Below, piece after piece: positions 11,157-62,604 of a stretch of 64,000 bases of DNA (positions are counted from its first letter, which is position 1; each line of letters begins with the position of its first letter). Below the pieces are notes generated by a model, which was not told the DNA's origin, did not search any database, and saw nothing but the letters and a program-made list of their open reading frames with translations. The position numbers were made by a program, and so were the translations under genes. The DNA is taken from contig JBOEGD010000018.1 in the NCBI GenBank assembly GCA_050633245.1, positions 64,001 through 128,000 of the forward strand. Direction: 5' to 3'. The DNA comes from Calditrichia bacterium. GTDB taxonomy: Bacteria; Calditrichota; Calditrichia; RBG-13-44-9; J075.

Positions 11157-11567
11157 TCATTCTTTCACGCTCCTTCCATCTTTGGCATTAGACGGGGCAG
11201 CATTCTCATGAACATTGGCGAAAATTTGTGCACAATAATAGCAACTATTCAAATGAATAATTACTCTTCGGCACTCATCTATAGGGGAGTTCTCTAAATA
11301 ATAGGCTACAAACCAGGGTATATTATCTTCTAAAAATATCTCTGATAAGCGACATTGGGAATTTGGGATCTCTTTAATGGTCTTGCTACATTCTTCAACA
11401 TTTTTAGTAAGCCTTGTCTTCAGCTCTAGCAAATATGCAAGAAGATCTTTATCAATAATATGCCCGGCAGCATGACCGTGCATATTATCGCGCTCGAATA
11501 GCACACTCAGGTGTGCTCCCAAAGCTGGGTAATTATCGATTTTAATGTCCAACTCCTTGGTATGCAT
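11157..11567 (-). CDS. Zinc-finger anti-sigma-like (ZAS, HxxxCxxC) protein
   Basis: HLNSCYYC motif; directly downstream of ECF sigma; start ATG 11567 or GTG 11576. Confidence 0.6.
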   Translation of the reverse strand: MHTKELDIKIDNYPALGAHLSVLFERDNMHGHAAGHIIDKDLLAYLLELKTRLTKNVEECSKTIKEIPNSQCRLSEIFLEDNIPWFVAYYLENSPIDECRRVIIHLNSCYYCAQIFANVHENAAPSNAKDGRSVKE

Positions 11568-11673
11568 CCGGCACACCTTGCTTGTTTAGATACTTTCCAA
11601 GCCTGCTGTTTACCTTACCTGGTATTAAACAGAGGCACTGAAATGCTAGTTTTCGCATCACTGATAAATCTTC

Positions 11674-12321: not shown

Positions 12322-12722
12322 AGGGAGTCGTCGTAGTTGAGTCGGTGTGCTGTTTCTAAAAATATACGGGTTTTTAGGAAAAGATCAAAAAAGGAATTGT
12401 TGACTTAACAAGTAAGGAGATCTGCAATGAGGGAGGCAAGTTCTCATCAGTTATTTCGGACATAAATGTCTGAATATTTATTAGGTGATTATTGAAAAGA
12501 ACTCTTCGATTTTTTGCTAGAAAGTAAGTATTATCTAGATTTAGTGAATGTTTTTTGCGAAAACTAACGGTTTTTCGCATCTGCTGAAAAAGGATAGTGA
12601 ATAAATTATCTGAGTAGTTGCAACTAAGAAACATTCTGTTTTCTTTCAAAGAGAATGGATGCAATGCATGGGCGATTTTTGGGTTTATTTGAGTAGATTA
12701 AACCTTTACGAGGGTGGGTTGA

Positions 12723-20919: not shown

Positions 20920-22092
20920 ATGAATGAATTAAAACGGTTTCAACTGGGTACTCACCGTGTTGCCAGTCCGGACAAAACTCTGGAAAGGGTTCGCCCATAC
21001 CTGAAAGCGATGGGGATTACCCGGGTAGCAAATGTTACCGGTCTCGATACAATCGGTATTCCGGTGGTGACGGTAATGCGTCCCAACTCCCGCTCGCTCT
21101 CAGTAGCCCAAGGGAAAGGTGTAACCCTCGAATCAGCTAAGGCCTCTGGGATTATGGAATCCATTGAAGCCTACCATGCAGAAACAATCTCACACGAGCT
21201 ACGATATTGCCATCTCGAACAAATTCTCGCCGAGGGACAGCAAGCGGTTTCAGAGGGACTACCGTTAACTGGCCTTATACCGTTCATGTCATCGCGTAAA
21301 ATACTTTGGATTCAGGGGCGATCGTTATTTACCCGACAACCTACTTGGGTACCATATGAAGCAGTTCACCTCGACTTTACCAAACCACTTCCAACAGGTA
21401 GCGGTGTGTTTGTCCAAAGTTCCAATGGATTAGCTTCAGGGAACAGTAAAAACGAGGCGATTGGACACGCTTTGTGCGAACTTATTGAGCGCGATGCCGC
21501 TGCAAGATGGCATCGCGGATCAGATCATCGTTATCAATTAGATCGAGTGGATTTGTCTAACGGACTTGATGATGTAAATCGCGAATTGCTGAAAAAATGC
21601 GCTGCTGCAGACGTTGAGGTTGCCAGCTGGAATTTGACCACCAAAATCGGAATTCCGGTTTTTTATACACTGCTGTTTCCCTCAAAAGATTCAACACTGA
21701 TGAATCGCGGTGCGATAGGCGGATATGGTTGCCATCCAAATACTGCAATCGCATTAGGTCGTTCCATAACTGAAGCCGCTCAGGCTCGTTTAACCTTGAT
21801 CTCCGGATCTCGTGATGACCTGCTGCCTGAGCGTTATAACGAGCTGCTGGATTATGAAAATACGCATGATCTTGTAAATAAACTGGGTGTGCAGGAAAGG
21901 AAGATAAGTTTGAGCCAGACTCGATCTTTTAGTGCCTCGACTTTTGCGGAGGACATCAAATATCTTCTGAAGTCCCTGCAAGCGAATGCGTATGATGAAG
22001 CGGTAGTAGTCGATCTGTCTCAGGAGCGATTTAATATACCTGTCGTTCGGGTCTTGGTTCCCGGTTTGAAATTGGCACAAAGGAAGCATTGA
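20920..22092 (+). CDS. ycaO: YcaO-family protein, TfuA-associated (thioamide-forming) type
   Basis: GITRVANVTGLDTIGIPV, QGKG, MESIE, SSNGLASGN, ELIERD, EAAQARL, ISGSRDD, VPGL; no C-terminal PxP. Confidence 0.92.
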   Translation: MNELKRFQLGTHRVASPDKTLERVRPYLKAMGITRVANVTGLDTIGIPVVTVMRPNSRSLSVAQGKGVTLESAKASGIMESIEAYHAETISHELRYCHLEQILAEGQQAVSEGLPLTGLIPFMSSRKILWIQGRSLFTRQPTWVPYEAVHLDFTKPLPTGSGVFVQSSNGLASGNSKNEAIGHALCELIERDAAARWHRGSDHRYQLDRVDLSNGLDDVNRELLKKCAAADVEVASWNLTTKIGIPVFYTLLFPSKDSTLMNRGAIGGYGCHPNTAIALGRSITEAAQARLTLISGSRDDLLPERYNELLDYENTHDLVNKLGVQERKISLSQTRSFSASTFAEDIKYLLKSLQANAYDEAVVVDLSQERFNIPVVRVLVPGLKLAQRKH

Positions 22093-22093
22093 T

Positions 22094-23233
22094 ATGAATA
22101 CCTCTCGCAAACCGATTGTCTTTTTGGGACCCTCCCTTCCTCTTCATAAAGCTGAGAAATACCTCGACGCAGACTTTCGTCCTCCGGCCGCCTGTGGGGA
22201 TGTGTATATGGCAACTCTGGAAGCACCTGATGCGATTGGTATAATAGACGGATATTTTGAAAATCGTCCAGCGATATGGCATAAAGAAATCCTTTGGGCA
22301 CTTAAGCAAGGTGTCCAGGTATTTGGGGCTGCAAGTATGGGCGCATTGCGAGCTGCAGAGTTACATCACTTTGGAATGAGAGGCGTTGGTGAAATTTTTC
22401 GACAGTTTGCCACTGGTGAGCTGGAAGATGACGATGAAGTGGCTATTATACATGGTCCAGCTGAGTTTAAATATGCAGGTATGTCAATGGCATTGGTGGA
22501 TTTGCGTAGCTTGCTAAAAAAGGCCAGTGCAGAAAGCATTATAAGTGCCGAAATTGAAAATTCACTGATTAGTAAAGCTAAAGCTTTGCACTATTCGCAA
22601 CGCACAAAGAAAGCCATTCTTGATTCTGTGCAGCAGGTGTCTGGAGATGCATGTTCGCGGATAAAATCTTGGTTGGAGTCCCAATTTCAATACAGTCAAA
22701 AATCTATCGATGCTATCCAAATGCTAAATGCGATGCAGCGCCCATGTTCCATGTCATATCAGAGTAACATACCGAACTTTGTGTTTCATAAAACCGACAA
22801 GTGGTATAGATTTACTCGTTATTTTGAAGGTAGACTAGCTCTCACAACAAATGAACTTCAATCAGGTAGAGGAACTGAGGGGTTTGCTGAAGCGGTAATG
22901 TTGCGTCAAATGCTAATTGAGAAAGCAGAGCGATTGCAATTAACTATTCCTTCTTCCAAAATAGAAGAGGCCTGCTGCCTGTTTCGGACCCTGAACAATC
23001 TGACATCCGATAATATGTTTGGAATTTGGCTTAAGCAAAAGGGATTAAAGCCTAATTCATTTAAGAGTATTGTAAGAGATCAGCTTCTTGTGAAAAACTG
23101 TGCGAAATTAACCACATTCAAATTGCCTAAACATTTACAGGCTCTCACATGCCTATTTTCGGAAGCTGAAAAAATCGAGAAGATCAGCGAACAGATTTTG
23201 TGGCCTCAGGCAAAAGCAGACTTGAAAAGTTAA
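22094..23233 (+). CDS. tfuA: TfuA-like protein with C-terminal helical extension
   Basis: VFLGPSL, PPAACGD, IIDGYF, WHKEIL, GAASMGALRAAEL, DDDEVAIIH; starts 1 nt after ycaO stop. Confidence 0.92.
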   Translation: MNTSRKPIVFLGPSLPLHKAEKYLDADFRPPAACGDVYMATLEAPDAIGIIDGYFENRPAIWHKEILWALKQGVQVFGAASMGALRAAELHHFGMRGVGEIFRQFATGELEDDDEVAIIHGPAEFKYAGMSMALVDLRSLLKKASAESIISAEIENSLISKAKALHYSQRTKKAILDSVQQVSGDACSRIKSWLESQFQYSQKSIDAIQMLNAMQRPCSMSYQSNIPNFVFHKTDKWYRFTRYFEGRLALTTNELQSGRGTEGFAEAVMLRQMLIEKAERLQLTIPSSKIEEACCLFRTLNNLTSDNMFGIWLKQKGLKPNSFKSIVRDQLLVKNCAKLTTFKLPKHLQALTCLFSEAEKIEKISEQILWPQAKADLKS

Positions 23234-42212: not shown

Positions 42213-44399
42213 ATGAAAGTAATTAGATACACTTTAAGCCGAATATGGCTATTTTTTCTACTCCTCCCTGTGCTGGCTCTGGCACAACAGGGGAACGGCG
42301 GCATTGCCGGAAAAATAACGGACATCGAAACCGGACAGCCGCTCTTGGGTGCCAATGTTGTTGTGGTGGGAACCCTTTTGGGTACGACTACCGGTAATGA
42401 TGGGCGATATGCACTTACGAATCTTCCCGTTGGCAGTCACACACTTTCAATAAGCTATATTGGTTATTCGCACAAGGATGTTGCAGTTGTCATTGAAAAT
42501 GGGAAGTCCCAGACGCTGGATATTGAGCTGCGCACGTCTTCGGTGCTCTTCGATCAGGTTATCGTAACCGGCTCGCAGCAGCCTGAAGATCTTGCTCAGG
42601 CTGCAAATAGTGTTAACACAATGTCTCACGCCGAGATCCTCCCACGCGGTCATCACATGCTGGCTGGAGCGCTGCAAAAATTACCGGCAATTGACGAAAT
42701 TGGCGAAAATATCAGCATTCGCGGGGGATCCGGCTATAGCTTTCTAAGCGTAGGCGGAAGTCGCGTTATGATGCTCATTGACGGCGTTCCAATGTTGACC
42801 AGTGATTTTAGTCGTGCTAACTGGGATTTCCTTCCGGTTACTGAACTGGAACGTGTAGAAGTATTAAAAGGTGGCGGTTCGGTGTTATATGGCTCTGGTG
42901 GCGTCAGTGGCGTGGTAAATTTGATTAGTCGTCAACCTTCAAAAGATGCTCGTATCTCGTATCGCACTACCTTTGGTCAGTTTGATGATCCATCTGTTGA
43001 TGCGTGGAAATGGACAGAAGACAATCTGTATTATTACGGCGCAGACCTTAGTTACAGTCAGACCTTTGGCCCGATTGGACTCCGTCTTTCGGCATCGCGT
43101 TTTTTCTCAACCGGTTATCGTCAGAATTCGCAGTTGAGTCGTTACTATTTAACTGCACGTCCGATTATCAACTTCCCCGACGGTTCAAATCTACAAATGT
43201 TCATGGCATACAACCGTGAGGAGCGCGAGTTATTCTTTCTCTGGCGTAGCCAGAATAATGCACTTACCACGGAATATGAAGACGACGCAGAGGTTGATGG
43301 ACTGCTGATATCCGGTATTTACAACAAGGCTTTTTCACCGAACTTGTTGACAAAAACCCGCTTTTCATTGAATTCTCAGCTTCTTGGTTTGCCACTTAGC
43401 TTAACGGAAGGCTTCGATCCGGCATTGGGATTGTCGGGTGAATTTCGCACGGTTTGGCTGCCGCATAATCAGCATACGCTGACCTTCGGAATCGATTACC
43501 GTCATGATATTGCCACATCAGATTTTTTTGGTGACCATTCGGCAAACACCTATTCTCCGTATATGCAGGAAAATTGGAAGGTGACCGATGCGTTTCAAAT
43601 GAACCTTGGTTTTCGCTACGATGTGTATCACTTAAGAGGTGATGAGACGCTCAGCCAGTTTAGCCCGAAGTTTGGGATGAGTTATCAGCTGCATGCGAAC
43701 TCGGTTGTGCACGGGTCGATTGGGCGTGGTTTTCGCACACCGTCCATCGCAGAGCGCTTTACAGAGCATGATATTCAGGGAGCCGCTGAGCTGTTGAAAA
43801 ACCCCGATCTGAAGCCGGAAAAGACGGTGCTAATGGATTTGGGGCTCCGTCAGCGAATTAACGATAATGTCTCTTTCGAAATCGCCGGTTTCTTAAGCAA
43901 TTACGAAAATCTGATTGAACTGACGCAGGTTAGTGACATCAATCTGGTTCTACAGTTTCTGAACTGTGAGAAGGCACGTATTCTTGGAGTTGAGTCTCAG
44001 GCGGCAATGTCTTTCTGGAAAGATCGACTCTCACTGCGCGTCAACGGTACTTATATGAAGACCGAGACGCTCGGTGAAGATGAAGGTTGCCGACTTGGCG
44101 ATGGTGAAGCGCTTCCTTATCGTCCTGAATTTAGTGCGTTTGTGCTGCCTGCACTCCATTTAAATGGTGTGACTCTTGAATCGGAATATCGCTATCAGTC
44201 TCGCTTTAATCGCGTATCATTTTTCTTGAGCGAGCAGCGCGTTGCCCGCAAAACCTGGGACTTGCGCGCTCGTTATAAATGGCGCTCTATTAACTTGATG
44301 GCGCAGGTTAAGAATTTATTTAATTACAATTATACCACGGTTGAGCAAAATATTGGTGAGCTGCGAAACTTTTCGGTCTCGTTGGTTGGCGAGCTTTAA
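42213..44399 (+). CDS. TonB-dependent receptor
   Basis: Signal peptide, GKITDIETGQPLLGANV..SYIGY domain, VIVTGS, ISIRG, LIDGVP, RVEVLKGGGSVLYG, RGFRTPS, NPDLKPE, VKNLFN. Confidence 0.92.
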   Translation: MKVIRYTLSRIWLFFLLLPVLALAQQGNGGIAGKITDIETGQPLLGANVVVVGTLLGTTTGNDGRYALTNLPVGSHTLSISYIGYSHKDVAVVIENGKSQTLDIELRTSSVLFDQVIVTGSQQPEDLAQAANSVNTMSHAEILPRGHHMLAGALQKLPAIDEIGENISIRGGSGYSFLSVGGSRVMMLIDGVPMLTSDFSRANWDFLPVTELERVEVLKGGGSVLYGSGGVSGVVNLISRQPSKDARISYRTTFGQFDDPSVDAWKWTEDNLYYYGADLSYSQTFGPIGLRLSASRFFSTGYRQNSQLSRYYLTARPIINFPDGSNLQMFMAYNREERELFFLWRSQNNALTTEYEDDAEVDGLLISGIYNKAFSPNLLTKTRFSLNSQLLGLPLSLTEGFDPALGLSGEFRTVWLPHNQHTLTFGIDYRHDIATSDFFGDHSANTYSPYMQENWKVTDAFQMNLGFRYDVYHLRGDETLSQFSPKFGMSYQLHANSVVHGSIGRGFRTPSIAERFTEHDIQGAAELLKNPDLKPEKTVLMDLGLRQRINDNVSFEIAGFLSNYENLIELTQVSDINLVLQFLNCEKARILGVESQAAMSFWKDRLSLRVNGTYMKTETLGEDEGCRLGDGEALPYRPEFSAFVLPALHLNGVTLESEYRYQSRFNRVSFFLSEQRVARKTWDLRARYKWRSINLMAQVKNLFNYNYTTVEQNIGELRNFSVSLVGEL

Positions 44400-49755: not shown

Positions 49756-51225
49756 ATGCCGAACCTTTGTCTCGATAAGCAAACCATCTTCATAACCGAC
49801 GACAGCGGACTGCAGGTCCTGAATCGCAGAGGTTCCTTCCGCCTTCATGGCAAGGGTCTCGATTCTCTGCACACTCAGCTGAAGCCGTATTTAGATGGCT
49901 CGCTTGACGAAGAGACTCTGCTTCAGGCGATCCCACAAAACTCTCGGGAAGTAGTTACCTCTTATCTGGGCAAGATGAAAACTATCGGAGCACTCCAACC
50001 ATCCGGTCAGCATGCTGAAGCCGTAACAGAGATTGATGTTCCGTTAGATACTCTTCTACAGTCACCTGTAAGTTCCATCCATTTTCACTTGAACAACCAG
50101 CGGGCCTCGATTACAACAGATCGTGATTTAACGGCAGTAATTCCAAAAAAATCCGAGTATAAGATCTGTCTGATCTTTGAGCAAAAGCTTGATGAAATCA
50201 TTGCGCGAATCGAGCAGTTGACCCGCCATAATGGAACGGTTGGAATTCTGCTGATCTCGGGAGTTACTGGCAGACGTGAATTGCAGGAAAGCTTCGCAAA
50301 AAAAATGTTTTTACAGCAGGTACTCGATACTTTGCTTAGAAGCTATAGCGATATTTTTCAGAGCGAAACGCGCCTGACGGTGCATGCAGTTGACCTGGAA
50401 TGCAGCACTTTGAGTCAACTTTTACAGCTTGTTGAGAGCCCGGTTGAGCAAATAGAATTTGCCAATGTAAAAGATTGGTTTCAGCTGGTTGAGTTTAGCA
50501 ATGAAACACAGTTGCCACTGGTAAATGCGCGTCTTGCAGCGAAGTATCTCGATTTTCCAAAGCAGGCATGGGGACTTAGTTTTCAGAAGCTGGAGCGTCG
50601 ATTAATCCTCGAGCTGAAGTCGTCCTTGATCAGGCGTTTCTCAGACAATGCTCGCTTTCAGTTTTCTAAACCAGCACATCTTACATCCGCAGAAGAACGA
50701 AAGTCGGGTTTGCCTGCATCACACAATGAGTTCTATGTTGACGATTCCCTGGCTGAGCTGCGGCTTATCTGCCTGGAGTCTTTTCTGATGAAAAAAGTCA
50801 ATAAGACTGAGCTTGCCAGTAAGTCTAAAGAACACGATATGCTTTCGCGTGAATCGCTTGGAAACAGCTGCCAACTTTTAATGCAGATTCTTTCCCTGCG
50901 CCTAAAAGACTTTACTGTTAATCGCTATCAGTCTGAATCCGGACTGTTTGTCTATTGGTTAGAAGATTTTTGCTCCTATTCATTCATAGAAGAAAAGTCT
51001 TGCTTCGAGATGTTGATGTATATCGTCGGGCGGGTTTACTACGACACCCGTTTGGAAGCAACCGATATTCGCAGTGCTGCACTAGACTATGTGGCCGACG
51101 TAATTCTGAACGAACTCGTAGAAAAGCATTCGCTGGAGCTGGAGCAATCTTATCCGGAAGCTCGCTTTATTTATGTTGAGCAGGAGCTTTGGCAAGAAAA
51201 CTTATTCATGGGATATATAGGCTAA
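49756..51225 (+). CDS. RRE-containing YcaO partner (ocin-ThiF/TbtF-like)
   Basis: AGGAG RBS; N-terminal three-strand/three-helix RRE pattern GSFRLHGKG...LKPYLDG...LLQAIP...YLGKMKTIGAL; directly precedes YcaO. Confidence 0.65.
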   Translation: MPNLCLDKQTIFITDDSGLQVLNRRGSFRLHGKGLDSLHTQLKPYLDGSLDEETLLQAIPQNSREVVTSYLGKMKTIGALQPSGQHAEAVTEIDVPLDTLLQSPVSSIHFHLNNQRASITTDRDLTAVIPKKSEYKICLIFEQKLDEIIARIEQLTRHNGTVGILLISGVTGRRELQESFAKKMFLQQVLDTLLRSYSDIFQSETRLTVHAVDLECSTLSQLLQLVESPVEQIEFANVKDWFQLVEFSNETQLPLVNARLAAKYLDFPKQAWGLSFQKLERRLILELKSSLIRRFSDNARFQFSKPAHLTSAEERKSGLPASHNEFYVDDSLAELRLICLESFLMKKVNKTELASKSKEHDMLSRESLGNSCQLLMQILSLRLKDFTVNRYQSESGLFVYWLEDFCSYSFIEEKSCFEMLMYIVGRVYYDTRLEATDIRSAALDYVADVILNELVEKHSLELEQSYPEARFIYVEQELWQENLFMGYIG

Positions 51226-51227
51226 AA

Positions 51228-53075
51228 ATGAATGTAATTGTAAACCATAGGCAAGAAACATCTCAAAAGCACGCTTTGGAACAGCGCATCTCTTCCCTGG
51301 TGGATGACATTTGGGATGGGGCTATCGAAGTTGCTTTCCTGCATAATTTACATTCGCATAAGCCTGGCTTTACTCTGCCGCTTGAAGCTACTCTTTACTG
51401 CGTTTTTGATTATCATAGTATGCATCTCTGTTGTTGTTATCCCGATAGTGAGAATGCCTGCATAAATTGCCTGGTTCAAAATTTATTCCGCAACTATGAC
51501 CTCACGCTGCGCAAGCGCTACCAAAAGCAAGATCATCAAACGTTTCCATTCTTTTATTCGCAAGAATACCTGTCTGTTCTGCCAACACTTGTCTCTCAAC
51601 TTGATGCAAAAGACTTTTACAGCATCAACTTTTTATCGCCGACGATTGAACGGCAGGCGTTTATGCCAAGCGTAATGTGTGATTGCCGCAAAACCCCTCG
51701 CTCATTAATGAAACAATTAGACGGGCACGATTTAGAGCTTGAGGACCGATTTGTCGATTCAAATCTGCGATCTGACAAGCTGCCTAAATTGGAAGCCTTT
51801 GTTTCTCAGAGTGCCGGCATTATTTCAGGCGAAAGACGACTTAGTGATACACTTTCCCTACCGACAGCAATAACGGAGACGATCTCCGGAACCTATCAAG
51901 CCGATTACTGTGGCGGTAAAGCTACGACGATGCAGCATGCTTCACTGATTGCAAAGTGCGAGGCGATTGAGCGACATCATATGCTGACACCGGGAGTTGA
52001 AGACTTGTTAACATTCGGTAGTTACGATATGCTGAAGTCGCAGGCTGTGAACCCGGACGATTTGTTTTACTCTGCCGTGCATCTTTCTGATGAAAATGTG
52101 CCGTATGATCCTGCAATGTCCTTTTATTGGAGAACAGCAGCGAATCTTACCCGAAATAGCCGCCAGTTGGTGCCAGCTCAGGAAGTTTGCTCTACAAAAC
52201 ATCTTACAAATGAACGGAGTATGTTTCCCTGCACTTCGAGTGGATTTGCACTTGGTGGTTCCTATGAGGAAGCAGTGCTGTTTAGCATCCTTGAGGTCGT
52301 AGAGCGAGATAGTTTTTTGGTGCACTGGTATCTAAAGAATCAGTGTCAGTTAGTAGACCCATTGAGTATTAAGGATGAGCAATTTCAGCTGCTGTATCTG
52401 AAGGCACAATACTGTCATCCGAACTACAATTTTTATTTTCTCGATATCACAACAGATTCTGCTATTCCTGCTATCTGGGGACTTGCCATAAAGCGCTTTG
52501 GGCAGGGTATGAAAACCATGACGACTGCGGCTGCTCATATTTTTCCCGAAAAGGCGATGTATGGAGCCTTGAAGGAACTCGTCGGCTACTTTAGTATGAC
52601 AAACGATTTTGCAGAGAGAGAAGCAGAGTACCGTAAGGTGTTTCGAAATCAAGCTCTGGCCAATAAAATTGACCATCATAGCGGTATTTACGGATTGGAA
52701 GAGGCAGTAGAGAAATATGACTATCTGAACCTTGATTCCCAAAAGGCTATCAATGTTCAGGAGCTTCAACAGCGCTCGATCTTTACAGACCTCGCAGTAC
52801 CGTTTAATCTGAAGGATCTGATTCTCGCGATTGTTCAGCAGCTAAAAAAGAATGGAAATGAGGTTTTAATTATAGATATGACTCGTGAGCAGATACGAAA
52901 ATTCGATATCTGCTGTGTGAAAACGATTGTTACTCAGATGTATCCACTCACCTTCGGATATTATGACATGCGTTTTTCTTTAAGCTCACGGTTATTGAAG
53001 CTAAATGAGCATTTTGGGAAAAAACCGATTAGTTGTTTAACAGATATTAATTTTTCACTACATCCATTTCCATAG
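51228..53075 (+). CDS. ycaO: Azoline-forming YcaO cyclodehydratase with N-terminal E1-like remnant
   Basis: ACINCL, CEAIERH, TSSGFALG, ILEVVERDSF, DITTD, ALKEL, DMT, C-terminal LHPFP (PxP). Confidence 0.9.
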   Translation: MNVIVNHRQETSQKHALEQRISSLVDDIWDGAIEVAFLHNLHSHKPGFTLPLEATLYCVFDYHSMHLCCCYPDSENACINCLVQNLFRNYDLTLRKRYQKQDHQTFPFFYSQEYLSVLPTLVSQLDAKDFYSINFLSPTIERQAFMPSVMCDCRKTPRSLMKQLDGHDLELEDRFVDSNLRSDKLPKLEAFVSQSAGIISGERRLSDTLSLPTAITETISGTYQADYCGGKATTMQHASLIAKCEAIERHHMLTPGVEDLLTFGSYDMLKSQAVNPDDLFYSAVHLSDENVPYDPAMSFYWRTAANLTRNSRQLVPAQEVCSTKHLTNERSMFPCTSSGFALGGSYEEAVLFSILEVVERDSFLVHWYLKNQCQLVDPLSIKDEQFQLLYLKAQYCHPNYNFYFLDITTDSAIPAIWGLAIKRFGQGMKTMTTAAAHIFPEKAMYGALKELVGYFSMTNDFAEREAEYRKVFRNQALANKIDHHSGIYGLEEAVEKYDYLNLDSQKAINVQELQQRSIFTDLAVPFNLKDLILAIVQQLKKNGNEVLIIDMTREQIRKFDICCVKTIVTQMYPLTFGYYDMRFSLSSRLLKLNEHFGKKPISCLTDINFSLHPFP

Positions 53076-53084
53076 AGATTGAAA

Positions 53085-53546
53085 ATGACCCGACTGCACA
53101 TAAATAAGCGCGAGTATTCCGCAAAAGCGGATGCAGACATGCCACTACTCTGGTATCTGCGAGACATCCTGAACCTGACCGGCACAAAGTTTGGATGCGG
53201 TATGGGGCTTTGTGGTGCGTGCACGGTGCTCGTCGATGGTAAGGCTGCGCGGTCTTGTATGGTAACGATCAGTAGCGTAGAAAATAAAGAAGTGACAACA
53301 ATTGAAGGCATCTCACAGCGAATGAATAATCGTCTGCAGCCGGTCTGGATTGAAGAGCAGGTGCCTCAGTGTGGCTATTGTCAAACTGGACAAATAATGT
53401 CCGCGCTGGCTCTACTCAAAACAAATCCAAATCCCTCAAATGAGGAAATTGAAGCGGCGATGTCTGGCAATATTTGTCGCTGCGGAACGTATTCGAGAAT
53501 TAAGAAGGCAATTTGTTCAGCTATCGGTGAGGAAAGCCGTGGCTAA
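53085..53546 (+). CDS. iorA: (2Fe-2S)-binding small subunit, isoquinoline 1-oxidoreductase alpha-like
   Basis: PLLWYLRD, GTKFGCGMGLCGACTV, RSC, VPQCGYCQTGQ, NICRCGTY. Confidence 0.92.
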   Translation: MTRLHINKREYSAKADADMPLLWYLRDILNLTGTKFGCGMGLCGACTVLVDGKAARSCMVTISSVENKEVTTIEGISQRMNNRLQPVWIEEQVPQCGYCQTGQIMSALALLKTNPNPSNEEIEAAMSGNICRCGTYSRIKKAICSAIGEESRG

Positions 53547-55665
53547 CAAAGGAACGCTCAGCAGACGCAGCTTTATAAAAATATCTGCGGCAGCAGCCGG
53601 CGGACTCCTGATAAGTTTTGGAATTCCAACTTTAACTAAAGCAGAAGAGAAAAATATCGTGTTAAACCACCATCTCAGCATAAACAGCAGCGGTATTGCT
53701 ACTATCTCCTTCCTGAGAAGCGAGATGGGGCAGGGCATTAAGACCGCGCTTCCAATGTTGATTGCAGAAGAACTGGAGATGGATTGGAAAAACGTACAGG
53801 TTACTCAGCCGCCCTACGATATTCGATTTGGACAGCAGGCTACCGTGGCAAGCAGAAGTATTCATGATGAATGGGAGGCGCTGCGGCAAGTTGGTGCATC
53901 TGTACGTGAGCTATTGATTCTGGCTGCTGCAAACCGTTGGCAGGTTCATCCAGAGAGTTGCTATGCCGAGCGTGGTGTGGTTTATCATTCTCAGAGCTCA
54001 AAATCATTAAGCTATGGTCAGCTCGTTGAAGAGGCTGCACGTCTTGAAATGCCGGAAAATGTGGCGTTAAAAAAGCCTGCGGACTTCAAGTTGATTGGCA
54101 AATCGATTCCACGGATAGATATCCCTGAAAAAGTTATGGGTCGTGCAGTCTTTGGCATTGATGTGAACGTGCCTGAGATGGCTATTGCTACGGTCTTGCG
54201 CTGTCCGGTATTTGGTGGAAAGGTTAAACGTTTTGATGCGACGAAAACAAAAAAATTAACGGGTATTATCGATGTGGTTGAGATTACCGGCGGTATTGCG
54301 GTAATTGGCGAAAACTATTGGGCTGCCAAGCGCGGTAAGGACATGCTGGATGTGCAGTGGAATGCAAAAGGTCTGGAAGATATTAATTCTGAAAGCATTT
54401 TTATTGGGCAGCGTGAAGCATTGGTGAAACCGGGTGATCATATTGTTACAGATGAAGGCAATTTTACTTCGGCTTACAACAAGGCTGAATGGCAGCTGTC
54501 GGCAGACTACGAGGCGCCTTTTCAAGCTCATGCTACAATGGAGCCAATGAACTGCACCGCGGACGTAAAAGAAGGTGCATGTCGCATCTGGGCACCTACT
54601 CAGGGAACACTCTGGATTCAAATGACAATCTCCGAGGCGCTTGAGATTCCCATGAAAAACATTGAAATTCACACGACCTATATGGGGTGTGGCTTCGGAC
54701 GACGCGCAGAAACAGACTTTGTATTAGATGCGGTAGAAGCATCAAAAGCTGTTGGCAGGCCCGTGAAGGTGATCTGGTCTCGTGAAGATGATATGCAGCA
54801 TGACTTTTATCGCCCGGCTTTTTCCATGCAATTAAAGGCAGGAATTGATAAGAACGGAAAGCCTGTTGCCTGGAAACATCAGCTTGCCGGGCCTTCAGTT
54901 GTTCGTCGGTGGGATGTAAGTGCCTTCGATTGGGCTGCAATAACCGGCTCAGACTGGCTCCCGTATTCGATACCCAACTTTCGTACAGAAGCAACCTTTA
55001 TTCCAACGAATGTTCCGGTGGGATACTGGCGTGGAACAGCAAACTCATATACCCAATTTGCAAATGAGACGTTTATCGATGAAATAGCGACGCGACAACA
55101 AATTGACCCTCTTGAGTATAGGCTTGGTTTATTAGAGGATGCACCCAGAGCACGAAAAGTACTCGAAAGCGTTGCTGTTCAGACGCAATGGGGAAGTTCA
55201 TTGCCCGCGGGAGTTGGGCGTGGGGTCGCGTTGTTTGCCCAAGAGTGGGATGAATTTAAGGTCTATTGTGCACAGGTTGCCGACATTGAGTTATCTGAAA
55301 CCGGAGACATTCGAGTGCGCCGCATATTTTGCAGTATCGATTGCGGACAGATAGTACACCCCGATACGGTTATTGCACAAACAGAAGGTAGTATTGTCTT
55401 TGGTCTTGCTGCTGCTCTTTACGGCGAGATTGAAATTGAGAAGGGGAGAGTGAAGCAAAGCAATTTTCACGACTACCCAATGCCAAAGTACAATGAAGTG
55501 CCCGAGATAGAAGTCCGCCTGATAAAAACTACAGAGTTTCCGGCTGGTGCCGGAGAAAAGGCAGTTGGGGCTACAGCACCGGCAATAGCAAATGCGGTTT
55601 ATAACTTAACCGGGCAACGACTACGCCGTTTGCCATTAAGACTGGATAATACAACAATTAGTTGA
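53539..55665 (+). CDS. iorB: Molybdopterin-binding large subunit, isoquinoline 1-oxidoreductase beta-like (xanthine dehydrogenase family), Tat signal
   Basis: LSRRSFIK twin-arginine, SEMGQG, LIAEEL, HATMEPMN, GCGFGRR, WSREDD, QSNFHDY, GAGE; GTG start overlaps iorA stop. Confidence 0.92.
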   Translation: MANKGTLSRRSFIKISAAAAGGLLISFGIPTLTKAEEKNIVLNHHLSINSSGIATISFLRSEMGQGIKTALPMLIAEELEMDWKNVQVTQPPYDIRFGQQATVASRSIHDEWEALRQVGASVRELLILAAANRWQVHPESCYAERGVVYHSQSSKSLSYGQLVEEAARLEMPENVALKKPADFKLIGKSIPRIDIPEKVMGRAVFGIDVNVPEMAIATVLRCPVFGGKVKRFDATKTKKLTGIIDVVEITGGIAVIGENYWAAKRGKDMLDVQWNAKGLEDINSESIFIGQREALVKPGDHIVTDEGNFTSAYNKAEWQLSADYEAPFQAHATMEPMNCTADVKEGACRIWAPTQGTLWIQMTISEALEIPMKNIEIHTTYMGCGFGRRAETDFVLDAVEASKAVGRPVKVIWSREDDMQHDFYRPAFSMQLKAGIDKNGKPVAWKHQLAGPSVVRRWDVSAFDWAAITGSDWLPYSIPNFRTEATFIPTNVPVGYWRGTANSYTQFANETFIDEIATRQQIDPLEYRLGLLEDAPRARKVLESVAVQTQWGSSLPAGVGRGVALFAQEWDEFKVYCAQVADIELSETGDIRVRRIFCSIDCGQIVHPDTVIAQTEGSIVFGLAAALYGEIEIEKGRVKQSNFHDYPMPKYNEVPEIEVRLIKTTEFPAGAGEKAVGATAPAIANAVYNLTGQRLRRLPLRLDNTTIS

Positions 55666-55916: not shown

Positions 55917-56087
55917 ATGAAAAATTTCAAACTGAATATCGATCTTGAAGAACTGAACATCACCGAAGTAGAACTGTTTACTGAAGAAGGCACTAAGGGC
56001 ATTCCTGCATTCGCAGCTTCCTGTTCGTCAGGTCCTGGTCTCCATAGTTGTGTTCGTGAAGAGAAGCCGGCACCAAACGACGAGTAA
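55917..56087 (+). CDS. Thiopeptide-type RiPP precursor (56 aa)
   Basis: AGGAG RBS; acidic leader MKNFKLNIDLEELNITEVELFTEEGTKGIPAFAA, core SCSSGPGLHSC, tail VREEKPAPNDE. Confidence 0.85.
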   Translation: MKNFKLNIDLEELNITEVELFTEEGTKGIPAFAASCSSGPGLHSCVREEKPAPNDE

Positions 56088-56295: not shown

Positions 56296-57405
56296 ATGAA
56301 GGTCTGGAAGAATGTAAATGTCTATTATTCAAACCTCGACAAGCTTATTCTCGATTGTGTTGAACCGACTATGAATGAAAAGCACGAGCAAATTGTCGAT
56401 TGGTTTTGGGATAGGCATTATGCCGGCGGAATGCATCTGCGCATTCGCTTTAAGTGCTCACAAAATGAATCTGAGGCGCTTATTGGAGAACTTACAGATG
56501 TTTTTGAACGATTTCTCTTGGCTCATCCCCTTCCGGCGCAAAAGTCTTATGACGTTAATCGTGTAGAACAGATGCTGCAAAAAGAAGAGGAAGAGTATAC
56601 TCCTGAAGATCTGCTATTCCGAACAAATTGCGTCGTGAATCGGCCTTATTTGCGTTTTCAGGAAAAATATCTTTCGCAAGAGTCTGTTTATTTTCTGGAA
56701 GATTTTTATTGTGAGGCGAAGCCACTTTGCCTGCAAATGATGCGTTCAAATGATCAAAAAACCGTTAGCATGTTAAAGCTATATTTTCTCACTGCATTGA
56801 TGTTGGGAAAATCTTACCCCGCTGGTGTGGTTGGGTATCGGTCGCATTGGGAAGGGTTCAGAATGCAAATGGCAGAGCAAAACGTCGGAGTTCTGGATGC
56901 CATCGAAAAAGTATTTCGCAGTAATAAAAGTAACCTCGAAGAGTTAATGCTGGTGATCGAAAAACAGCATCGTGGCGAAGAAACCCCTTGCGATTTACTG
57001 CTGGAAAGCTGGGGAAAGCTGATAAATAAATATCGCACGAGAGCATTGGAATTATTTGATCGCGGAGTTCCTATTCTCCCGCAATTCAATAGTGAAGAAG
57101 AGCTGGATGTTGTTCGCAATAAATACGCGCGGCAAAAGGAAAAAAGCGAGTTTGTAGAAAGGCTATACGAAGATAAACGATTTTTCCTCGCCATAAAAGA
57201 TAGTCGATCCTTCACCGGAAATCGCATTGTTCTGACCATGCTTTACAATATGGTCGGTTTGCTGGGGCTTAGTATGATGGAAAAATTTCAGCTTTGCTAT
57301 CTGGCTCATCAAACGGTTGAAAACTATTTTCAGAGTGACTCACTTGAAATTCTTGCCGCTAATATCCGCGAAACCATAGCAGAACATACTGAAGAGAGCA
57401 CCTAG
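56296..57405 (+). CDS. Thiopeptide pyridine synthase ([4+2] cyclase, TbtD/TclM-like)
   Basis: RHYAGGMHLRIRF, YRSHWEGF, RIVLTMLYNMVGLLGLSMMEKFQLCYL resemble the cyclase branch of the LanB_C fold. Confidence 0.7.
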   Translation: MKVWKNVNVYYSNLDKLILDCVEPTMNEKHEQIVDWFWDRHYAGGMHLRIRFKCSQNESEALIGELTDVFERFLLAHPLPAQKSYDVNRVEQMLQKEEEEYTPEDLLFRTNCVVNRPYLRFQEKYLSQESVYFLEDFYCEAKPLCLQMMRSNDQKTVSMLKLYFLTALMLGKSYPAGVVGYRSHWEGFRMQMAEQNVGVLDAIEKVFRSNKSNLEELMLVIEKQHRGEETPCDLLLESWGKLINKYRTRALELFDRGVPILPQFNSEEELDVVRNKYARQKEKSEFVERLYEDKRFFLAIKDSRSFTGNRIVLTMLYNMVGLLGLSMMEKFQLCYLAHQTVENYFQSDSLEILAANIRETIAEHTEEST

Positions 57406-57474
57406 GGCTCAATTCACAAAAGAGAATATGTGTCCTTTGTCTGCACAAATCTTAAGGCCGGAAGGAATAACAGC

Positions 57475-59841
57475 ATGCGTTTGCTAGCTTTACGAAAATC
57501 CGGAGAGTCTTTTAGCAGTGTCTTTAACGTGAAGTCGGATTGTTTCGTTGAACTTTTTCAGAAACAGTCCAGGCTTCAGGAGAAAATCACCTCATTGCAA
57601 AACGAACTTGCTGAGTTGTTGCACCACGCTTTTAGACAGAACTACGATCAAAAAGAGCACCGAAGATATATTCTGAAGATAAAGCGCGATATTCATAACC
57701 TCCGCCCTGTGAAGCATATGGACGCCTCATTTCTTGGCCACGATTGTCTGGATCAGCTTGGGACGTATTCCAGGCTGGTAGAGGAGAAGTCTGAGGTTTT
57801 AAGCCAGCTTAACACAGCTCCACTCGAAGAAATCAGAAATAATATTGGTACACTGCTTCGGAATGAAAAATTTCTGAGTGCGATAGATTATTCGAATCCG
57901 GAACTGTTTGCGAAATTAAAAAAGTATCAGACGGGAAGCAGTAAGAAACACTTCTCCAAGCTCGAACGCAGCGTATACAGTTATGGATTACGATTCTTTA
58001 GCAAGGCCAACCCACTGTATGTTTTTAGCGAGTTATGGTTTGCCGAAGAACTGGGAATTGAAATAGAGCAGAGCTGTGAGCTTTCGCTTCATATGAATTA
58101 CATCCTCGGAATTGAAGAGCATTTGCTGAGTTATGCCGGTGTTCAGGAAAAGGATTTGCTTTATTGTCAAAACTCCTTAAAAAGAGAAGAGAAAATAACG
58201 TTTATCATTCCAGATGCAAGAGCCAAACGCTATCTTTCGATTTCGTCCAATCCGCTACTCGACAAAATTTTATTTTTTTTTCACCGACAGCTACCCAAAG
58301 AAAAAAGTATTGGCAGACTAACAGAATACCTGCACAGCGAATTCCCCAATGAAGATGTCGAAGGGCTGCAAAACTACGTCGCTGCCTTAATAAAAAACAA
58401 GATTTTAGTGCGGTACCTGGTTCGCGATTTCAGCAAATTTTATGTCGATCTTGAACAACAGCTTTTAAGTATGGAAAAACAACTGAAGGACTATCAGGAG
58501 ATCCATCACGGTCACTTTGACTATTCGCAGTTGTCCCAAAAAACCAACGATGATCAAATACTCGACTCCCAACTACGTCATAAGGCTCCTGCGAACTATC
58601 GCTCGTTCTATGTGGATTCGTATTTTAAAACTTCGGCTCGGGGGCCGAATGAGAAATCCTTTACGGAAACCCTGCAAGATTTAAAGCAGGTAAAACCGCT
58701 CTTCCTGCCAAATGGCAATAACCGCTATATGGCGGATAATATTGTTTTGTTGTTGAAAGATATTCTGGCCGACAAATCGTGCAATTCGATTCCCTTTCTC
58801 GACTTCCTGGATCACTGCATTCAAAATAGCGTAAATTTCTCTTCTCTGCCACCTGCACAAAATTCTGCCCGCGAGAGTTTCGAGCAGCAAAGTGCGTTGT
58901 TGCAAAAGAAGTTGGCCACGTTACAGGGAGAGCTCGAAAAGCCAATTCTAGAGCAGCTTACCCAAAAATATGATGCACCAAAGATAAATCCACACTTGTG
59001 TTTTAACGGTCCATTCGATTATCAAAACCAGCGTTACTATATAAACAATATTTGGGCCGGCAACGGGCGGTTTATTTCCCGGTACCTGATTAATCAGCCG
59101 GGCAAGCGAGCCCGTAAACATGCGAACAGTTCTGCCGGACTAAATGTACAAGTGTACGACTTTTTTGATAACTCGAATAAGGGGTATACGGTAACTCCTT
59201 TTGATGTCGGCTTTGGCATGAATGCTCGTTTTAAACATTTGTTCAAAGAATGGTTGACTCCGGAGGAAATACAGCTGTCTCTTGATGGAGATCAGGTTAT
59301 TTACTCTAAAGCCGGTAGCGGGCAGCGTATTCATTTCTATTATCTTGGGTTTGCCTTAATTTCCGGACTTGCAACAGAATACCAGATTCTCTTAGCAAAT
59401 AAGAATGACTTCTATTTGAATAGCTTCGCCGATTGGATTATCCCGCATGCTGATGCGAACCCTTTTCAACCGGGCCTAACCTATGGACAAATTTGCCTGA
59501 GACGAGACCGTTGGTACATCCCGGGAAAGGAAATTCCGGCGCTAATTCCGGCTGATAATACGGTTAGCTGTGCTATGAGGTTGTTAAGCTGGGCTGAAAG
59601 AACACTGGATAACTCTTGTCGCTATTACTATTTCCGTACTGCAGGAAATGCAACCAGGTTTGCTCATAAGCCGATGTTCCTGGACGTACAGAATCCACTC
59701 AGCGTGTCAAATTTTTATACCCGCATTGCCCAAAACGATCCGAACAGTTTTGTCTGTTTTGAGCGCATGGAACCGCCTATAAATAATCTTTATGAGTATG
59801 AGAAGCAAAAATATCTCACCGAAGTTATGCTGGAGGTTTAG
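57475..59841 (+). CDS. Split LanB dehydratase, glutamylation domain
   Basis: LKIKRDIHNLR, FLSAIDYSNPEL, RFFSKANPLYVFS, GNGRFISRY, LRRDRW, KPMFLDVQNPL, FERMEP, YLTEVMLE. Confidence 0.85.
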   Translation: MRLLALRKSGESFSSVFNVKSDCFVELFQKQSRLQEKITSLQNELAELLHHAFRQNYDQKEHRRYILKIKRDIHNLRPVKHMDASFLGHDCLDQLGTYSRLVEEKSEVLSQLNTAPLEEIRNNIGTLLRNEKFLSAIDYSNPELFAKLKKYQTGSSKKHFSKLERSVYSYGLRFFSKANPLYVFSELWFAEELGIEIEQSCELSLHMNYILGIEEHLLSYAGVQEKDLLYCQNSLKREEKITFIIPDARAKRYLSISSNPLLDKILFFFHRQLPKEKSIGRLTEYLHSEFPNEDVEGLQNYVAALIKNKILVRYLVRDFSKFYVDLEQQLLSMEKQLKDYQEIHHGHFDYSQLSQKTNDDQILDSQLRHKAPANYRSFYVDSYFKTSARGPNEKSFTETLQDLKQVKPLFLPNGNNRYMADNIVLLLKDILADKSCNSIPFLDFLDHCIQNSVNFSSLPPAQNSARESFEQQSALLQKKLATLQGELEKPILEQLTQKYDAPKINPHLCFNGPFDYQNQRYYINNIWAGNGRFISRYLINQPGKRARKHANSSAGLNVQVYDFFDNSNKGYTVTPFDVGFGMNARFKHLFKEWLTPEEIQLSLDGDQVIYSKAGSGQRIHFYYLGFALISGLATEYQILLANKNDFYLNSFADWIIPHADANPFQPGLTYGQICLRRDRWYIPGKEIPALIPADNTVSCAMRLLSWAERTLDNSCRYYYFRTAGNATRFAHKPMFLDVQNPLSVSNFYTRIAQNDPNSFVCFERMEPPINNLYEYEKQKYLTEVMLEV

Positions 59842-59844: not shown

Positions 59845-60702
59845 GTGAAGCGTTGGGTTAGTTATCATGCTTTTTTAACAGAGGATACAGATCGCTATAT
59901 AACGGCTTTTCTATTGCCGGGAATTGAGCGCATCGGAATACAGATGCCTGAAGTAAAGCGATTCTTCTTTCTTCGCTACTGGGAAGGTGGAGCACACCTT
60001 CGCTTGCGCTTTCGCATTGCTGAGGAGGCCGCTATTAAGCCACTCGAAACAGAGCTTCAGCAAACGCTGGATCGCATGGCCAGGTTGAACGATCAGCAGG
60101 CGTTTATTCTCTCTGGTTCGGAAAGTCGATCGACGTGCTTGAATCCTCAAAATTTCGTGCTGATGCGCGCCGAATACGATCGGAGCAGTCATTATTTTGG
60201 TGAATCGATGGCTTCTGTATACTCCGAACTGATAAACGAACAGACTTCTTATTTGGCGATCGCTATGCTGGATTTCTGTTACGAGTCCGGGATAGACCGC
60301 CAGACGCTTGTTATACTTGTAGTCAATTATCTGATGTCGAAGAGCCTGGTAGATTATGAATTACGGCAAAAGTTAATTAATCGAGGATATGAGTTTGCTA
60401 CCCTGAATACGCAAAAATATTTTACCTCTGTTGCGTTTAAGGCACCTGTGCTGCAAAACAAACAACTCGCGGCGTTAGTCAGGAATAGTGAAGCACTGTA
60501 TCCGTTCTTTTCTTCAAATACCTACCTCAAGCAGATACTGCGCTTGATTAAGCGGATCTATCATCATAATTACGACGAGTGCATCGTGGTGCATTCCATT
60601 CATCTGCTTTGCAATAAGCTGGGTGTCAACTTACCTGCCGAGGCGGCTATTTATGATATCATTAGTTCTTTAGAAAACTTTCAAGTAAACCACCAAACCT
60701 GA
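59845..60702 (+). CDS. Split LanB dehydratase, glutamate-elimination domain (LanB_C)
   Basis: WVSYHAF, FFFLRYWEGGAHLRLRF, EYDRSSHYFG, SIHLLCNKLG..EA. Confidence 0.8.
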   Translation: MKRWVSYHAFLTEDTDRYITAFLLPGIERIGIQMPEVKRFFFLRYWEGGAHLRLRFRIAEEAAIKPLETELQQTLDRMARLNDQQAFILSGSESRSTCLNPQNFVLMRAEYDRSSHYFGESMASVYSELINEQTSYLAIAMLDFCYESGIDRQTLVILVVNYLMSKSLVDYELRQKLINRGYEFATLNTQKYFTSVAFKAPVLQNKQLAALVRNSEALYPFFSSNTYLKQILRLIKRIYHHNYDECIVVHSIHLLCNKLGVNLPAEAAIYDIISSLENFQVNHQT

Positions 60703-60726: not shown

Positions 60727-62604
60727 ATGGATACTGTTAAGAATAATGAGTGGCTTAACGATTCTGAGAAAAAGAACATCAACTGGAACAACATCTTTCG
60801 GTTCGCGGCATATTACTATCCATTGCGAAATAAGCTGTTTATTGTGATGGCTCTAGCCTTCATTTTTGCCTTTGCCGCCTATTTAATCCCGGTTGTTTTT
60901 GCGCAAACTCAAGCTGCTTTTATTACTGAAAATAGAGATCTCTTTCTTCTGTCTATGCTGGGCTATTTAGGCATTCTTACCTTCCAGAGTGTGATGACGT
61001 ATAGTATTAAGATTTTGCAAACATCGGTTTTTACATGGTTGAATAAAGACGTTTTACTTCGCTATTATTCCAAATTGCTCAATATCTCAGTTCCCGATTA
61101 TCTGGCATTTAAAAACCGCACGAATCTGTTTCAGCGAGTGATGGACGTCGTGTTGATAACATCTGATGCGACCAACGTGTTTTTCGGCATTATCATTAGT
61201 GGAATAAGTGTCGTTATATTTGGCGGCATTATTTTTTACCTTTCCCCCCTCGTTTTCGCCGTGCTAATTGTCGGAAGCGTCTTTTTGATTTTATCGATGC
61301 TTTACTATACGCCAAAGCTGCGCAATTTGCGTCAACGTTGCCTGGCAATTGGCTACCCTCTCGTATCAAAGATGATCGAAATTATTGAAGGTCTGGTTAC
61401 AATTAAGACACTTACCGCCTCTGTGAGCGTCACTTCGGATATTACCGAACTGATTGATGGTCGAAAGGATGCAGAGTATAATGAAGGTGTAAAATATGCC
61501 GAGGCCGACCTGCTCAAGTCCTTTATTCGCAACAGCATTTTGATCGCAGCGGTATCTGTTAGCTTTTATCAACTGCTTATCGGCCAACTTCCAGTATCGG
61601 ATGTGTTCGCCTTGTACATCTTAATATCGAGCTTTTTAAGCCCTGTCCAGCAGCTTGTCAGCCAATACCTAAAACTCTCTACCATCTCAGTCAATATTAA
61701 CAAATACATGGAGATTATCGACCTGGAGAATGAATTTGCTGCGCCAATTTCAACAAATGGTAATGGTCGGAGTCATACTAATGGAACAACGCCACAGACC
61801 TATAATGGGACACATAAAAATGGTGTTAATACAATATTTAATAATGGTAATGGTCACGCAAATGGTCACCTGCGAGGAAATATTCGCTTTAACGACGTGC
61901 GGTTTGGATATGAAGAGTCGCAGTCTGTTTTGAAGAATATTGATGTTGAAATTAGTGAAGGACAACGAGTTGTTCTCATCGGTAAAAGCGGTGCGGGAAA
62001 GACAACATTGATGCGCCTTCTCCTTGGATTCATGGAGCCCGATTCCGGCTCTATTTCTGTAGATGGAAAAGAACTTTCAAACCTAATTACCAGCGGTAAG
62101 TATCGCAAGCACTTTGGGATCGTCAGTCAAAATGACTTTTTATTCAACGTGAGTATTAGAGAAAACCTGCTTTTTGGATTGTCTGAGTGCGATAAACATG
62201 CAGATCTGGAGACGGTGTTAAGGGCTGTTAACCTATGGGATGATATAGCCGAGTTAGAGGATGGTGTAGATACCATTTTCGAGAAAGAACGCTTTTCAGG
62301 TGGACAAAAACAACGCCTGATAATTGCACGTGCATTAATCCGCGATCCGGATATCGTTCTACTTGATGAACCAACAACGGCATTGGATTTCGAAAATGAG
62401 CGCATCATCGGCGAGGCACTCGAGGCATTGGTGGGTGGAAAGACCTCGCTGACTATTGCCCACAAGCTTTCTACAATTAAGTCGGCCGATTTGATTTTGG
62501 TATTAAAAGGTGGTCGAATTGTGGATAAGGGGACGCATAGCGAATTGCTGACGCGGTCAGAATACTATCGCAGTCTTTGCGAATTCAACAGCTTTATTGT
62601 TTAG
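60727..62604 (+). CDS. ABC exporter (fused TMD-NBD, no peptidase domain)
   Basis: TM helices, GKSGAGKT, FSGGQKQR, LLDEPT, IAHKLST. Confidence 0.93.
   Translation: MDTVKNNEWLNDSEKKNINWNNIFRFAAYYYPLRNKLFIVMALAFIFAFAAYLIPVVFAQTQAAFITENRDLFLLSMLGYLGILTFQSVMTYSIKILQTSVFTWLNKDVLLRYYSKLLNISVPDYLAFKNRTNLFQRVMDVVLITSDATNVFFGIIISGISVVIFGGIIFYLSPLVFAVLIVGSVFLILSMLYYTPKLRNLRQRCLAIGYPLVSKMIEIIEGLVTIKTLTASVSVTSDITELIDGRKDAEYNEGVKYAEADLLKSFIRNSILIAAVSVSFYQLLIGQLPVSDVFALYILISSFLSPVQQLVSQYLKLSTISVNINKYMEIIDLENEFAAPISTNGNGRSHTNGTTPQTYNGTHKNGVNTIFNNGNGHANGHLRGNIRFNDVRFGYEESQSVLKNIDVEISEGQRVVLIGKSGAGKTTLMRLLLGFMEPDSGSISVDGKELSNLITSGKYRKHFGIVSQNDFLFNVSIRENLLFGLSECDKHADLETVLRAVNLWDDIAELEDGVDTIFEKERFSGGQKQRLIIARALIRDPDIVLLDEPTTALDFENERIIGEALEALVGGKTSLTIAHKLSTIKSADLILVLKGGRIVDKGTHSELLTRSEYYRSLCEFNSFIV

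Follow-up and report, generated by a model that had tools for sequence, protein, structure and literature searches.

We analyzed a 64,000-nucleotide stretch of DNA (the window) from a Calditrichia bacterium, comprising positions 64,001 to 128,000 of contig JBOEGD010000018.1 (C18:64001-128000 of the 6.35-Mb assembly). For the downstream flank, we read C18:124001-142000 (L007). Coordinates refer to the window, and those beyond base 64000 are window-equivalent. A two-gene pair, iorAB, is embedded in a cluster of the thiopeptide kind for a peptide that is made on the ribosome and then modified post-translationally (RiPP). The gene of the cyclodehydratase YcaO1 ends with a TAG at 53073-53075, and the ATG of iorA is located at 53085, 9 nt on. 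The product of iorA (53085..53546, + strand) is a small subunit of 153 residues with two [2Fe-2S] centers (Fer2_2, E 4.6e-28; Fer2, E 2.1e-8) and without a signal peptide. The product of iorB (53539..55665, + strand) is a molybdopterin-binding large subunit (MoCoBD_1, E 6e-40; MoCoBD_2, E 3e-35) with an N-terminal twin-arginine motif. The precursor gene starts 251 nt past the end of iorB. A sequence-only reading of the window had placed iorA directly after the ycaO stop, iorB overlapping iorA, and the precursor downstream. The open reading frame (ORF) map and the family scans agree with this order, and the anatomy of an embedded, co-oriented IorAB of the putative twin-arginine translocation (Tat) type between ycaO and the precursor is upheld.

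The iorB frame is open from an ATG at 53440, which places the Tat motif at residues 40-57 of the long frame. Therefore, the GTG at 53539 is the likelier start. From this GTG, the N-terminus of IorB reads VANKGTLSRRSFIKISAAAAGGLLISFG / VANKGTLSRRSFIK, in which the motif SRRSFIK is followed by a hydrophobic stretch. The overlap between iorA and iorB is 8 nt with the GTG at 53539 and 107 nt with the ATG at 53440. The promoter and terminator scan gave nothing above the shuffled expectation, and no terminator-like site is found on the + strand between iorB and the precursor. The repeat search around iorAB returned short chance matches only; no transposase, repeat, or insertion scar flanks the pair. 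iorAB and the cluster's other enzyme genes stay within 1.5 standard deviations (sd) of the genome background in GC content and in GC content at third codon positions (GC3), so composition is uninformative either way. The outliers are the precursor gene, which is short (+2.9 sd), and the histidine-kinase gene in the flank (-2.7 sd).

Judged from its sequence, iorAB is an intact two-subunit molybdenum (Mo) enzyme of the xanthine oxidase family, in the branch of IorAB and the membrane-bound aldehyde dehydrogenases, without a flavin adenine dinucleotide (FAD) subunit. All eight Fe-S cysteines (C38, C43, C46, C58, C96, C99, C131, and C133) are present in the translation of IorA, and the best solved match of IorA, over its full length, is 8GY3_B (E 7.7e-54). 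IorB aligns over its full length with 8GY3_C (E 3.9e-88); the twin-arginine motifs are aligned, and GAGE of IorB is aligned to GLGE, which holds the glutamate of the catalytic GxGE motif. IorB is 41-48% identical to its 112 closest full-length homologues, among which the median identity is 49%. IorB retains 123 of the 132 columns conserved at ≥95% in these homologues. The nine deviations are G384C (window 54688-54690), located in the GGGFGRR motif near the Mo site where 99% of the 112 homologues have a glycine, and eight others. In a search of 5.8 billion proteins with residues 40-330 of IorB, the best match is ~48-49% identical (53% over a shorter stretch). Its nearest homologues are labelled Ignavibacteria or have been given the name 'isoquinoline 1-oxidoreductase beta subunit' by transfer, and every match of IorAB to the NCBIfam equivalogs is far below cut-off. 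In sum, IorAB is an ordinary member of a known enzyme family.

The Pfam TAT_signal profile gives IorB 19.4 bits, below the cut-off of 22.7. The Tat call for IorB thus rests mainly on the motif SRRSFIK, which is aligned to the twin-arginine motif of 8GY3_C. A TatC gene is present in the genome.

PDB 8GY3, the membrane-bound aldehyde dehydrogenase of Gluconobacter, shares with IorAB (chains B and C, both subunits over their full length) a twin-arginine motif at the N-terminus of the large subunit, the GxGE glutamate, the two [2Fe-2S] centers, and the lack of an FAD subunit. The aldehyde dehydrogenase of acetic acid bacteria contains a third, cytochrome c subunit as the membrane anchor. The 8GY3-type enzyme has this subunit, whereas the flanking ORFs and family scans reveal neither a cytochrome c gene nor an FAD-subunit gene beside iorAB. 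Therefore, we assign the pair to the two-gene IorAB form rather than the three-subunit form. The database name derives from the isoquinoline 1-oxidoreductase IorAB of Brevundimonas diminuta, which has the same two-gene iorA/iorB architecture and after which many of the closest homologues are named. This name reflects annotation transfer and is not evidence for an isoquinoline substrate here.

The cluster extends from ~49.7 kb to 70.2 kb, and the predicted operon continues 6.2 kb beyond base 64000 on the same strand. Upstream of iorAB, orf489 (49756..51225, +) has no Pfam or NCBIfam family match and is presumably the docking (F-type) protein of the cyclodehydratase. It precedes the gene of its partner YcaO1 (51189..53075, +; 628 residues), whose YcaO domain spans residues 243-584 (PF02624, E 1.3e-51). 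YcaO1 scores 200.5 bits against TIGR03604, under the cut-off of 219. Downstream of iorAB, the precursor gene (55917..56087, +) encodes, by translation, a 56-residue peptide with the leader MKNFKLNIDLEELNITEVELFTEEGTKGIPAFAA and the core SCSSGPGLHSCVREEKPAPNDE. It is followed by the gene of a TbtD-like pyridine synthase, i.e., a [4+2] enzyme (56296..57405, +; PF14028). The best NCBIfam match of the synthase is TbtD_PbtD_pyrid (NF045556, E 1.4e-47), at 162.6 bits below the equivalog cut-off of 325. Then come the two parts of a split LanB: the N-terminal part, with a predicted role in glutamylation (57430..59841, +; PF04738, E 6.9e-11), and the C-terminal part, with a predicted role in elimination (59845..60702, +; PF14028, E 1e-20; TIGR03891). 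The split LanB and the separate pyridine synthase together account for one PF04738 gene and two PF14028 genes. The ATP-binding cassette (ABC) exporter (60727..62604, +; PF00664 and PF00005) consists of a permease and an ATPase and has no peptidase domain.

The next gene (62577..64814, +; cut by the window end at 64000) encodes a divergent, TonB-receptor-like outer-membrane protein of 745 residues (CarbopepD_reg_2). It is 25% identical over 232 residues to the TonB-dependent receptor encoded at 42213-44399. It gives no Plug or barrel Pfam match; a CarboxypepD_reg domain is retained, as is a weak similarity to the plug region of the bona fide receptor at 42213-44399. The following gene, orf241 (64842-65567, +), encodes a secreted, TPR-like protein with a signal peptide and weak TPR matches. 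Two SagB-type dehydrogenases follow: SagB1 (65548-66672, +; TIGR03605, 166.5 bits), which contains a ThcOx N-domain (PF22767) and a nitroreductase fold, and SagB2 (66563-67612, +; 134.9 bits), both well over the TIGR03605 cut-off of 78.4. The array ends with a ThiF/SagC-like protein (67603-68868, +; PF00899) and the SagD-type YcaO2 (68869-70218, +; TIGR03604, 256 bits against the cut-off of 219). In the downstream flank, the genes from the ABC exporter to YcaO2 form an unbroken + strand array in which neighbors overlap or are ≤28 nt apart, and a histidine kinase and a response regulator come after YcaO2. Even with iorAB left aside, the cluster is complete. It comprises two cyclodehydratase sets, two SagB-type flavin mononucleotide (FMN) dehydrogenases, the split LanB, the TbtD-like pyridine synthase, and the ABC exporter. 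The presence of two cyclodehydratase sets (orf489 with YcaO1, and the ThiF-like protein with YcaO2) and two SagB proteins is to be seen beside a core that has only two Cys and four Ser. No second precursor is seen 3′ of YcaO2.

The sequence-only reading had noted that no FMN dehydrogenase is in view and had proposed IorAB as a substitute azoline oxidase. Within the 64-kb window, the first statement stands: genome-wide searches with TIGR03605 and PF00881 give no nitroreductase-fold or SagB match there. The reason is that the window end cuts the cluster. Of the three TIGR03605 matches in the genome, two are located at C18:130139-131588, 2.1-3.6 kb beyond the window end. PF00881 finds the identical two nearest dehydrogenases, and the joint extent of the matches is C18:130091-131588. 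Reading the downstream flank, on which the argument for substitution had been made to depend, thus places SagB1 and SagB2 just past base 64000. The replacement of the FMN dehydrogenase by IorAB, which would oxidize azolines to azoles, was suggested by the empty window but is very improbable. The two SagB genes belong to the same array of overlapping genes, 1.5-3.6 kb beyond base 64000, and SagB1 is the conserved dehydrogenase of related clusters (9/12; see below). In the thiomuracin and thiocillin pathways, azoles are formed before pyridine synthesis, in the cytoplasm, whereas IorAB is predicted to be periplasmic. In addition, IorA and IorB carry only the Fe-S and molybdenum cofactor (Moco) domains and the Tat motif, and no nitroreductase fold. 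Therefore, the substitution is refuted, and IorAB is not the azoline oxidase.

Sister clusters of this locus are rare. The word-index search of the 5.8 billion proteins with the pyridine synthase matched the synthase itself only, and no sister cluster is present in the sets of its own family, order, class, and phylum (16, 37, and 86 genomes; the phylum set is the class set here). The sole weak match in the phylum, G001:C93, has LanB and LanC; it is a lanthipeptide locus of class I and was rejected as a sister cluster. The exhaustive HMMER search with the pyridine synthase yielded 292 relatives at E ≤1e-3, 35 of them at E ≤1e-30; the best is 33% identical. With a profile of the top ten relatives, 12 sister loci with flanks of ≤10 kb were found in species-representative genomes, eleven in Acidobacteriota-type metagenome-assembled genomes and one in a Longimicrobiaceae genome. 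Their pyridine synthases are 28-34% identical to that of the cluster, i.e., distant. A profile search of 400 further sampled genomes of the phylum of one sister genome, G086, gave 0 matches, and a metagenome scan with the ten-sequence pyridine-synthase alignment gave no relatives.

We searched the 12 sister loci for counterparts with tblastn (E ≤1e-5); four loci (L025, L026, L029, and L032) are cut by contig ends. SagB1 has counterparts in nine of the loci (37-46% identity), the N-terminal part of LanB in nine, and the C-terminal part in eight. YcaO1-type proteins are present in six (29-33% identity). orf489 is found beside YcaO1 in 6/12, and additionally in L068, with only a short N-terminal stretch matched in L028, L035, and L036. 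The ABC exporter is found in 6/12 (38-41% over the full length in four, split matches in two more), and ThiF with a YcaO2-type protein in two, L033 and L035. Most sister loci have a single one of the two cyclodehydratase sets; in L035, a short fragment resembling orf489 is present as well. The gene order of L035, ABC-SagB1-ThiF-YcaO2-SagB2, closely resembles the module downstream of the window, indicating that the downstream module belongs to the same pathway. With two canonical SagB proteins in the array and SagB1 in 9/12 sisters, this order also indicates that the dehydrogenation role is already filled. In L035, an Acidobacteriota locus of 21 kb, no fewer than 11 precursor genes share this leader and are accompanied by three TbtD-like paralogues; the locus looks like an expansion of precursors and synthases.

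The leader of the precursor is homologous to those of 12 sister precursors (28-42% identity), as seen from the small ORFs of the sister loci and alignment A3, in which Ser1 of the core and the later Ser-Cys are invariant in 13/13 precursors. Outside this genome, the leader family occurs mostly in Acidobacteriota metagenome-assembled genomes. The sequence-only reading had named the absence of iorAB from sister clusters as evidence against its proposal, and iorAB is absent from all those found. In the tblastn search, IorA and IorB have counterparts in 0/12 loci each, as do the outer-membrane protein and orf241 (0/12 each). Among metagenome contigs retrieved with a DNA pattern of the leader motif, iorA and iorB are found in 0/31 loci, of which eight are true sisters (0/8), most shorter than 4 kb; an informative length is reached by L058 (9.8 kb) and L061 (6.4 kb) alone. 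L031 and L034 both run YcaO1, precursor(s), SagB1, LanB-N, and TbtD; in L031 alone, orf489 stands before YcaO1 and LanB-C between LanB-N and TbtD. The precursor comes directly after ycaO in both loci, so iorAB, which occupies exactly this spacer here, resembles an insertion of two genes.

Outside the cluster, the genome has one other copy of IorB, which is 33% identical, and within the phylum (86 genomes) the best counterparts reach 36-39% identity. Together with the ~48-49% of the best match in the large collection, these values indicate that iorAB did not arise by recent copying of a housekeeping gene. iorA-iorB pairs are present in 23 of the 86 genomes, this one included, in unrelated contexts; one is accompanied by an XdhC chaperone gene. 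We searched for IorB in the genomes of five sister loci. Three (G088, G089, and G090) have no match at E ≤1e-20. The three IorB loci of G087 are on a contig different from that of its sister locus, L028. An iorA/iorB pair (L068:3095-5763, G086:C3) is present in G086, to which L027 belongs; its products are 50% and 35% identical to IorA and IorB, respectively. This pair lies 6.4 kb 5′ of the first gene of the sister cluster, on the opposite strand. The six unrelated genes between them encode a 207-residue protein of no family, BtpA, a 169-residue ORF, a Ser/Thr kinase in two ORFs with PD40 repeats, a metallophosphoesterase, and a diacylglycerol-kinase-like protein. With five copies, genomes of ~5.5 Mb, and a target of 45 kb each, the chance of one such neighbor is roughly 4%. 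The neighborhood of iorAB in G086 is probably due to chance.

The cluster is of the thiopeptide/pyritide kind with a rare leader family, and a Mo enzyme with a putative Tat signal embedded in a RiPP cluster is a combination that full-text literature searches did not return and that is supported by a single genome. The clusters of the thiomuracin and thiocillin type (TbtB/C/D/E/F/G) and of the pyritides share with it the N-terminal Ser and the later Ser-Cys of the core, the split LanB, the TbtD-like synthase, YcaO, the SagB/ThcOx-type dehydrogenase, and the ABC exporter. Unlike the thiomuracin and thiocillin clusters, however, this cluster has a core with two Cys, two cyclodehydratase sets, two dehydrogenases, an embedded Mo enzyme that is predicted to be Tat-dependent, an outer-membrane protein, a leader of an Acidobacteriota-type family, and a pyridine synthase that scores under the NCBIfam equivalog cut-off.

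We tentatively favor the reading that iorAB is an accessory enzyme that would perform a late, periplasmic oxidation of the exported peptide. The tight packing on the same strand, with the 9-nt gap to ycaO and the 8-nt overlap of iorA and iorB, is consistent with this reading, as are the intactness of the pair and its distance from any housekeeping copy, and the outer-membrane protein and the secreted orf241, which are unique to this cluster (0/12 sisters), fit a periplasmic stage. Several points weigh against it. The absence of iorAB from all 12 genome loci and all 31 metagenome loci leaves no conservation that would argue for a function in the pathway, and no electron-acceptor gene accompanies the pair. 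Full-text searches gave no earlier case of a Mo enzyme that matures a RiPP, although supplementary tables of genome-mining papers may list the cluster family; passages of PMC11924602 do not bear on the IorAB enzyme type. In addition, iorA-iorB pairs are common stand-alone cassettes in the phylum and mobile over evolutionary time, so a chance landing is possible. Nearly as likely, and ranking close behind the accessory oxidation, is that such a cassette landed in the spacer between ycaO and the precursor, where it would be expressed with the operon and oxidize an unrelated periplasmic aldehyde or N-heterocycle, without a part in the synthesis of the peptide. Its absence from the 12 genome sisters and the eight true metagenome sisters, the direct succession of ycaO and the precursor in L031 and L034, and the pairs in unrelated contexts in 23/86 genomes all speak for a passenger, and the pair in G086, 6.4 kb from a sister cluster, shows that mere proximity occurs. 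In line with this, iorB and the RiPP genes have their closest relatives in different groups, the former among Ignavibacteria-labelled sequences (~48%) and the latter in Acidobacteriota (30-46%). A passenger accounts less well for the position of the pair, which sits mid-operon with 9-nt spacing and not at an edge, and for the flanks, which are free of any transposase, repeat, or scar. Moreover, variable accessory tailoring genes are normal in thiopeptide clusters, and the absence of iorAB from distant sisters is therefore weak evidence.

Quite unlikely is a role that is linked to the cluster and is not tailoring, in which IorAB would protect the producer by inactivating, through oxidation, peptide that re-enters, or would take part in uptake or recycling with the TonB-receptor-like protein. 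The pair occurs only here with the TonB-receptor-like outer-membrane protein and the secreted TPR-like protein, and its predicted location is periplasmic. However, the argument is purely contextual, and neither subunit showed homology to immunity proteins that are known.

On the accessory reading, iorAB would share a transcript with the cyclodehydratase genes, and IorAB would be exported folded through the Tat system to the periplasm, with IorA carried by the signal of IorB. The substrate may be the macrocycle after its aromatization and its export by the ABC transporter. IorAB may then hydroxylate a C-H of an electron-poor heteroaromatic ring, either at a free position of the pyridine or at C2 of the His; the oxygen would come from water, and the electrons would pass to a periplasmic cytochrome. 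Mo hydroxylases such as quinaldine 4-oxidase and xanthine oxidase attack electron-poor carbons adjacent or gamma to a ring nitrogen, and C8 of purines. Hydroxylation of a pyridine or His ring, which the sequence-only reading had also put forward, is plausible chemistry for this enzyme family. A bolder form of this proposal, which we regard as rather doubtful, is that IorAB is the first Moco enzyme in RiPP maturation and the first case of periplasmic tailoring of a thiopeptide. In that case, its target after ABC export would be the trisubstituted pyridine, at the free gamma position, or the core His, at C2, with the oxygen drawn from water, and the hydroxypyridine or oxo-histidine macrocycle, possibly metal-binding, would be handled by the TonB-receptor-like protein. 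Pyoverdine, a non-ribosomal peptide, is matured in the periplasm by enzymes that are exported through Tat or Sec and are not molybdoenzymes. As an analogy only, its pathway likewise has export to the periplasm by an ABC exporter, oxidative tailoring there, and a TonB-dependent receptor in the locus, whereas the precursor is ribosomal and the enzyme contains Mo in the cluster described here.

Three neighboring loci deserve mention. At 20920-23233, 27 kb 5′ of the cluster, a YcaO protein (390 residues; PF02624, E 3.7e-74) is directly followed by a TfuA-domain protein, a pairing associated with peptide thioamidation; a sigma-54 activator is next. The region at 3014-16175 encodes a caspase-like Peptidase_C14 protein (1104 residues), a TPR-CHAT protein (1137 residues), and a protein with NACHT and FGE-sulfatase domains (1150 residues), and looks like a signalling or defence island of the STAND/caspase type. 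A MauG/MbnH-like di-haem peroxidase with a type IX secretion sorting tail is encoded 4 kb past the cluster (L007:14150-15616, window-equivalent 74150-75616); its TIGR04039 score, 153 bits, is below cut-off.

The practical result of this analysis is a correction: the cluster is a complete thiopeptide-like pathway with canonical dehydrogenases, to which the Mo enzyme is a singleton addition. If IorAB acts on the peptide, RiPP tailoring would gain a class of cofactor that is new to it, Moco with water-derived oxygen, and would extend to the periplasm as a new compartment; IorAB would also provide an enzyme that hydroxylates peptide-embedded heteroaromatics.

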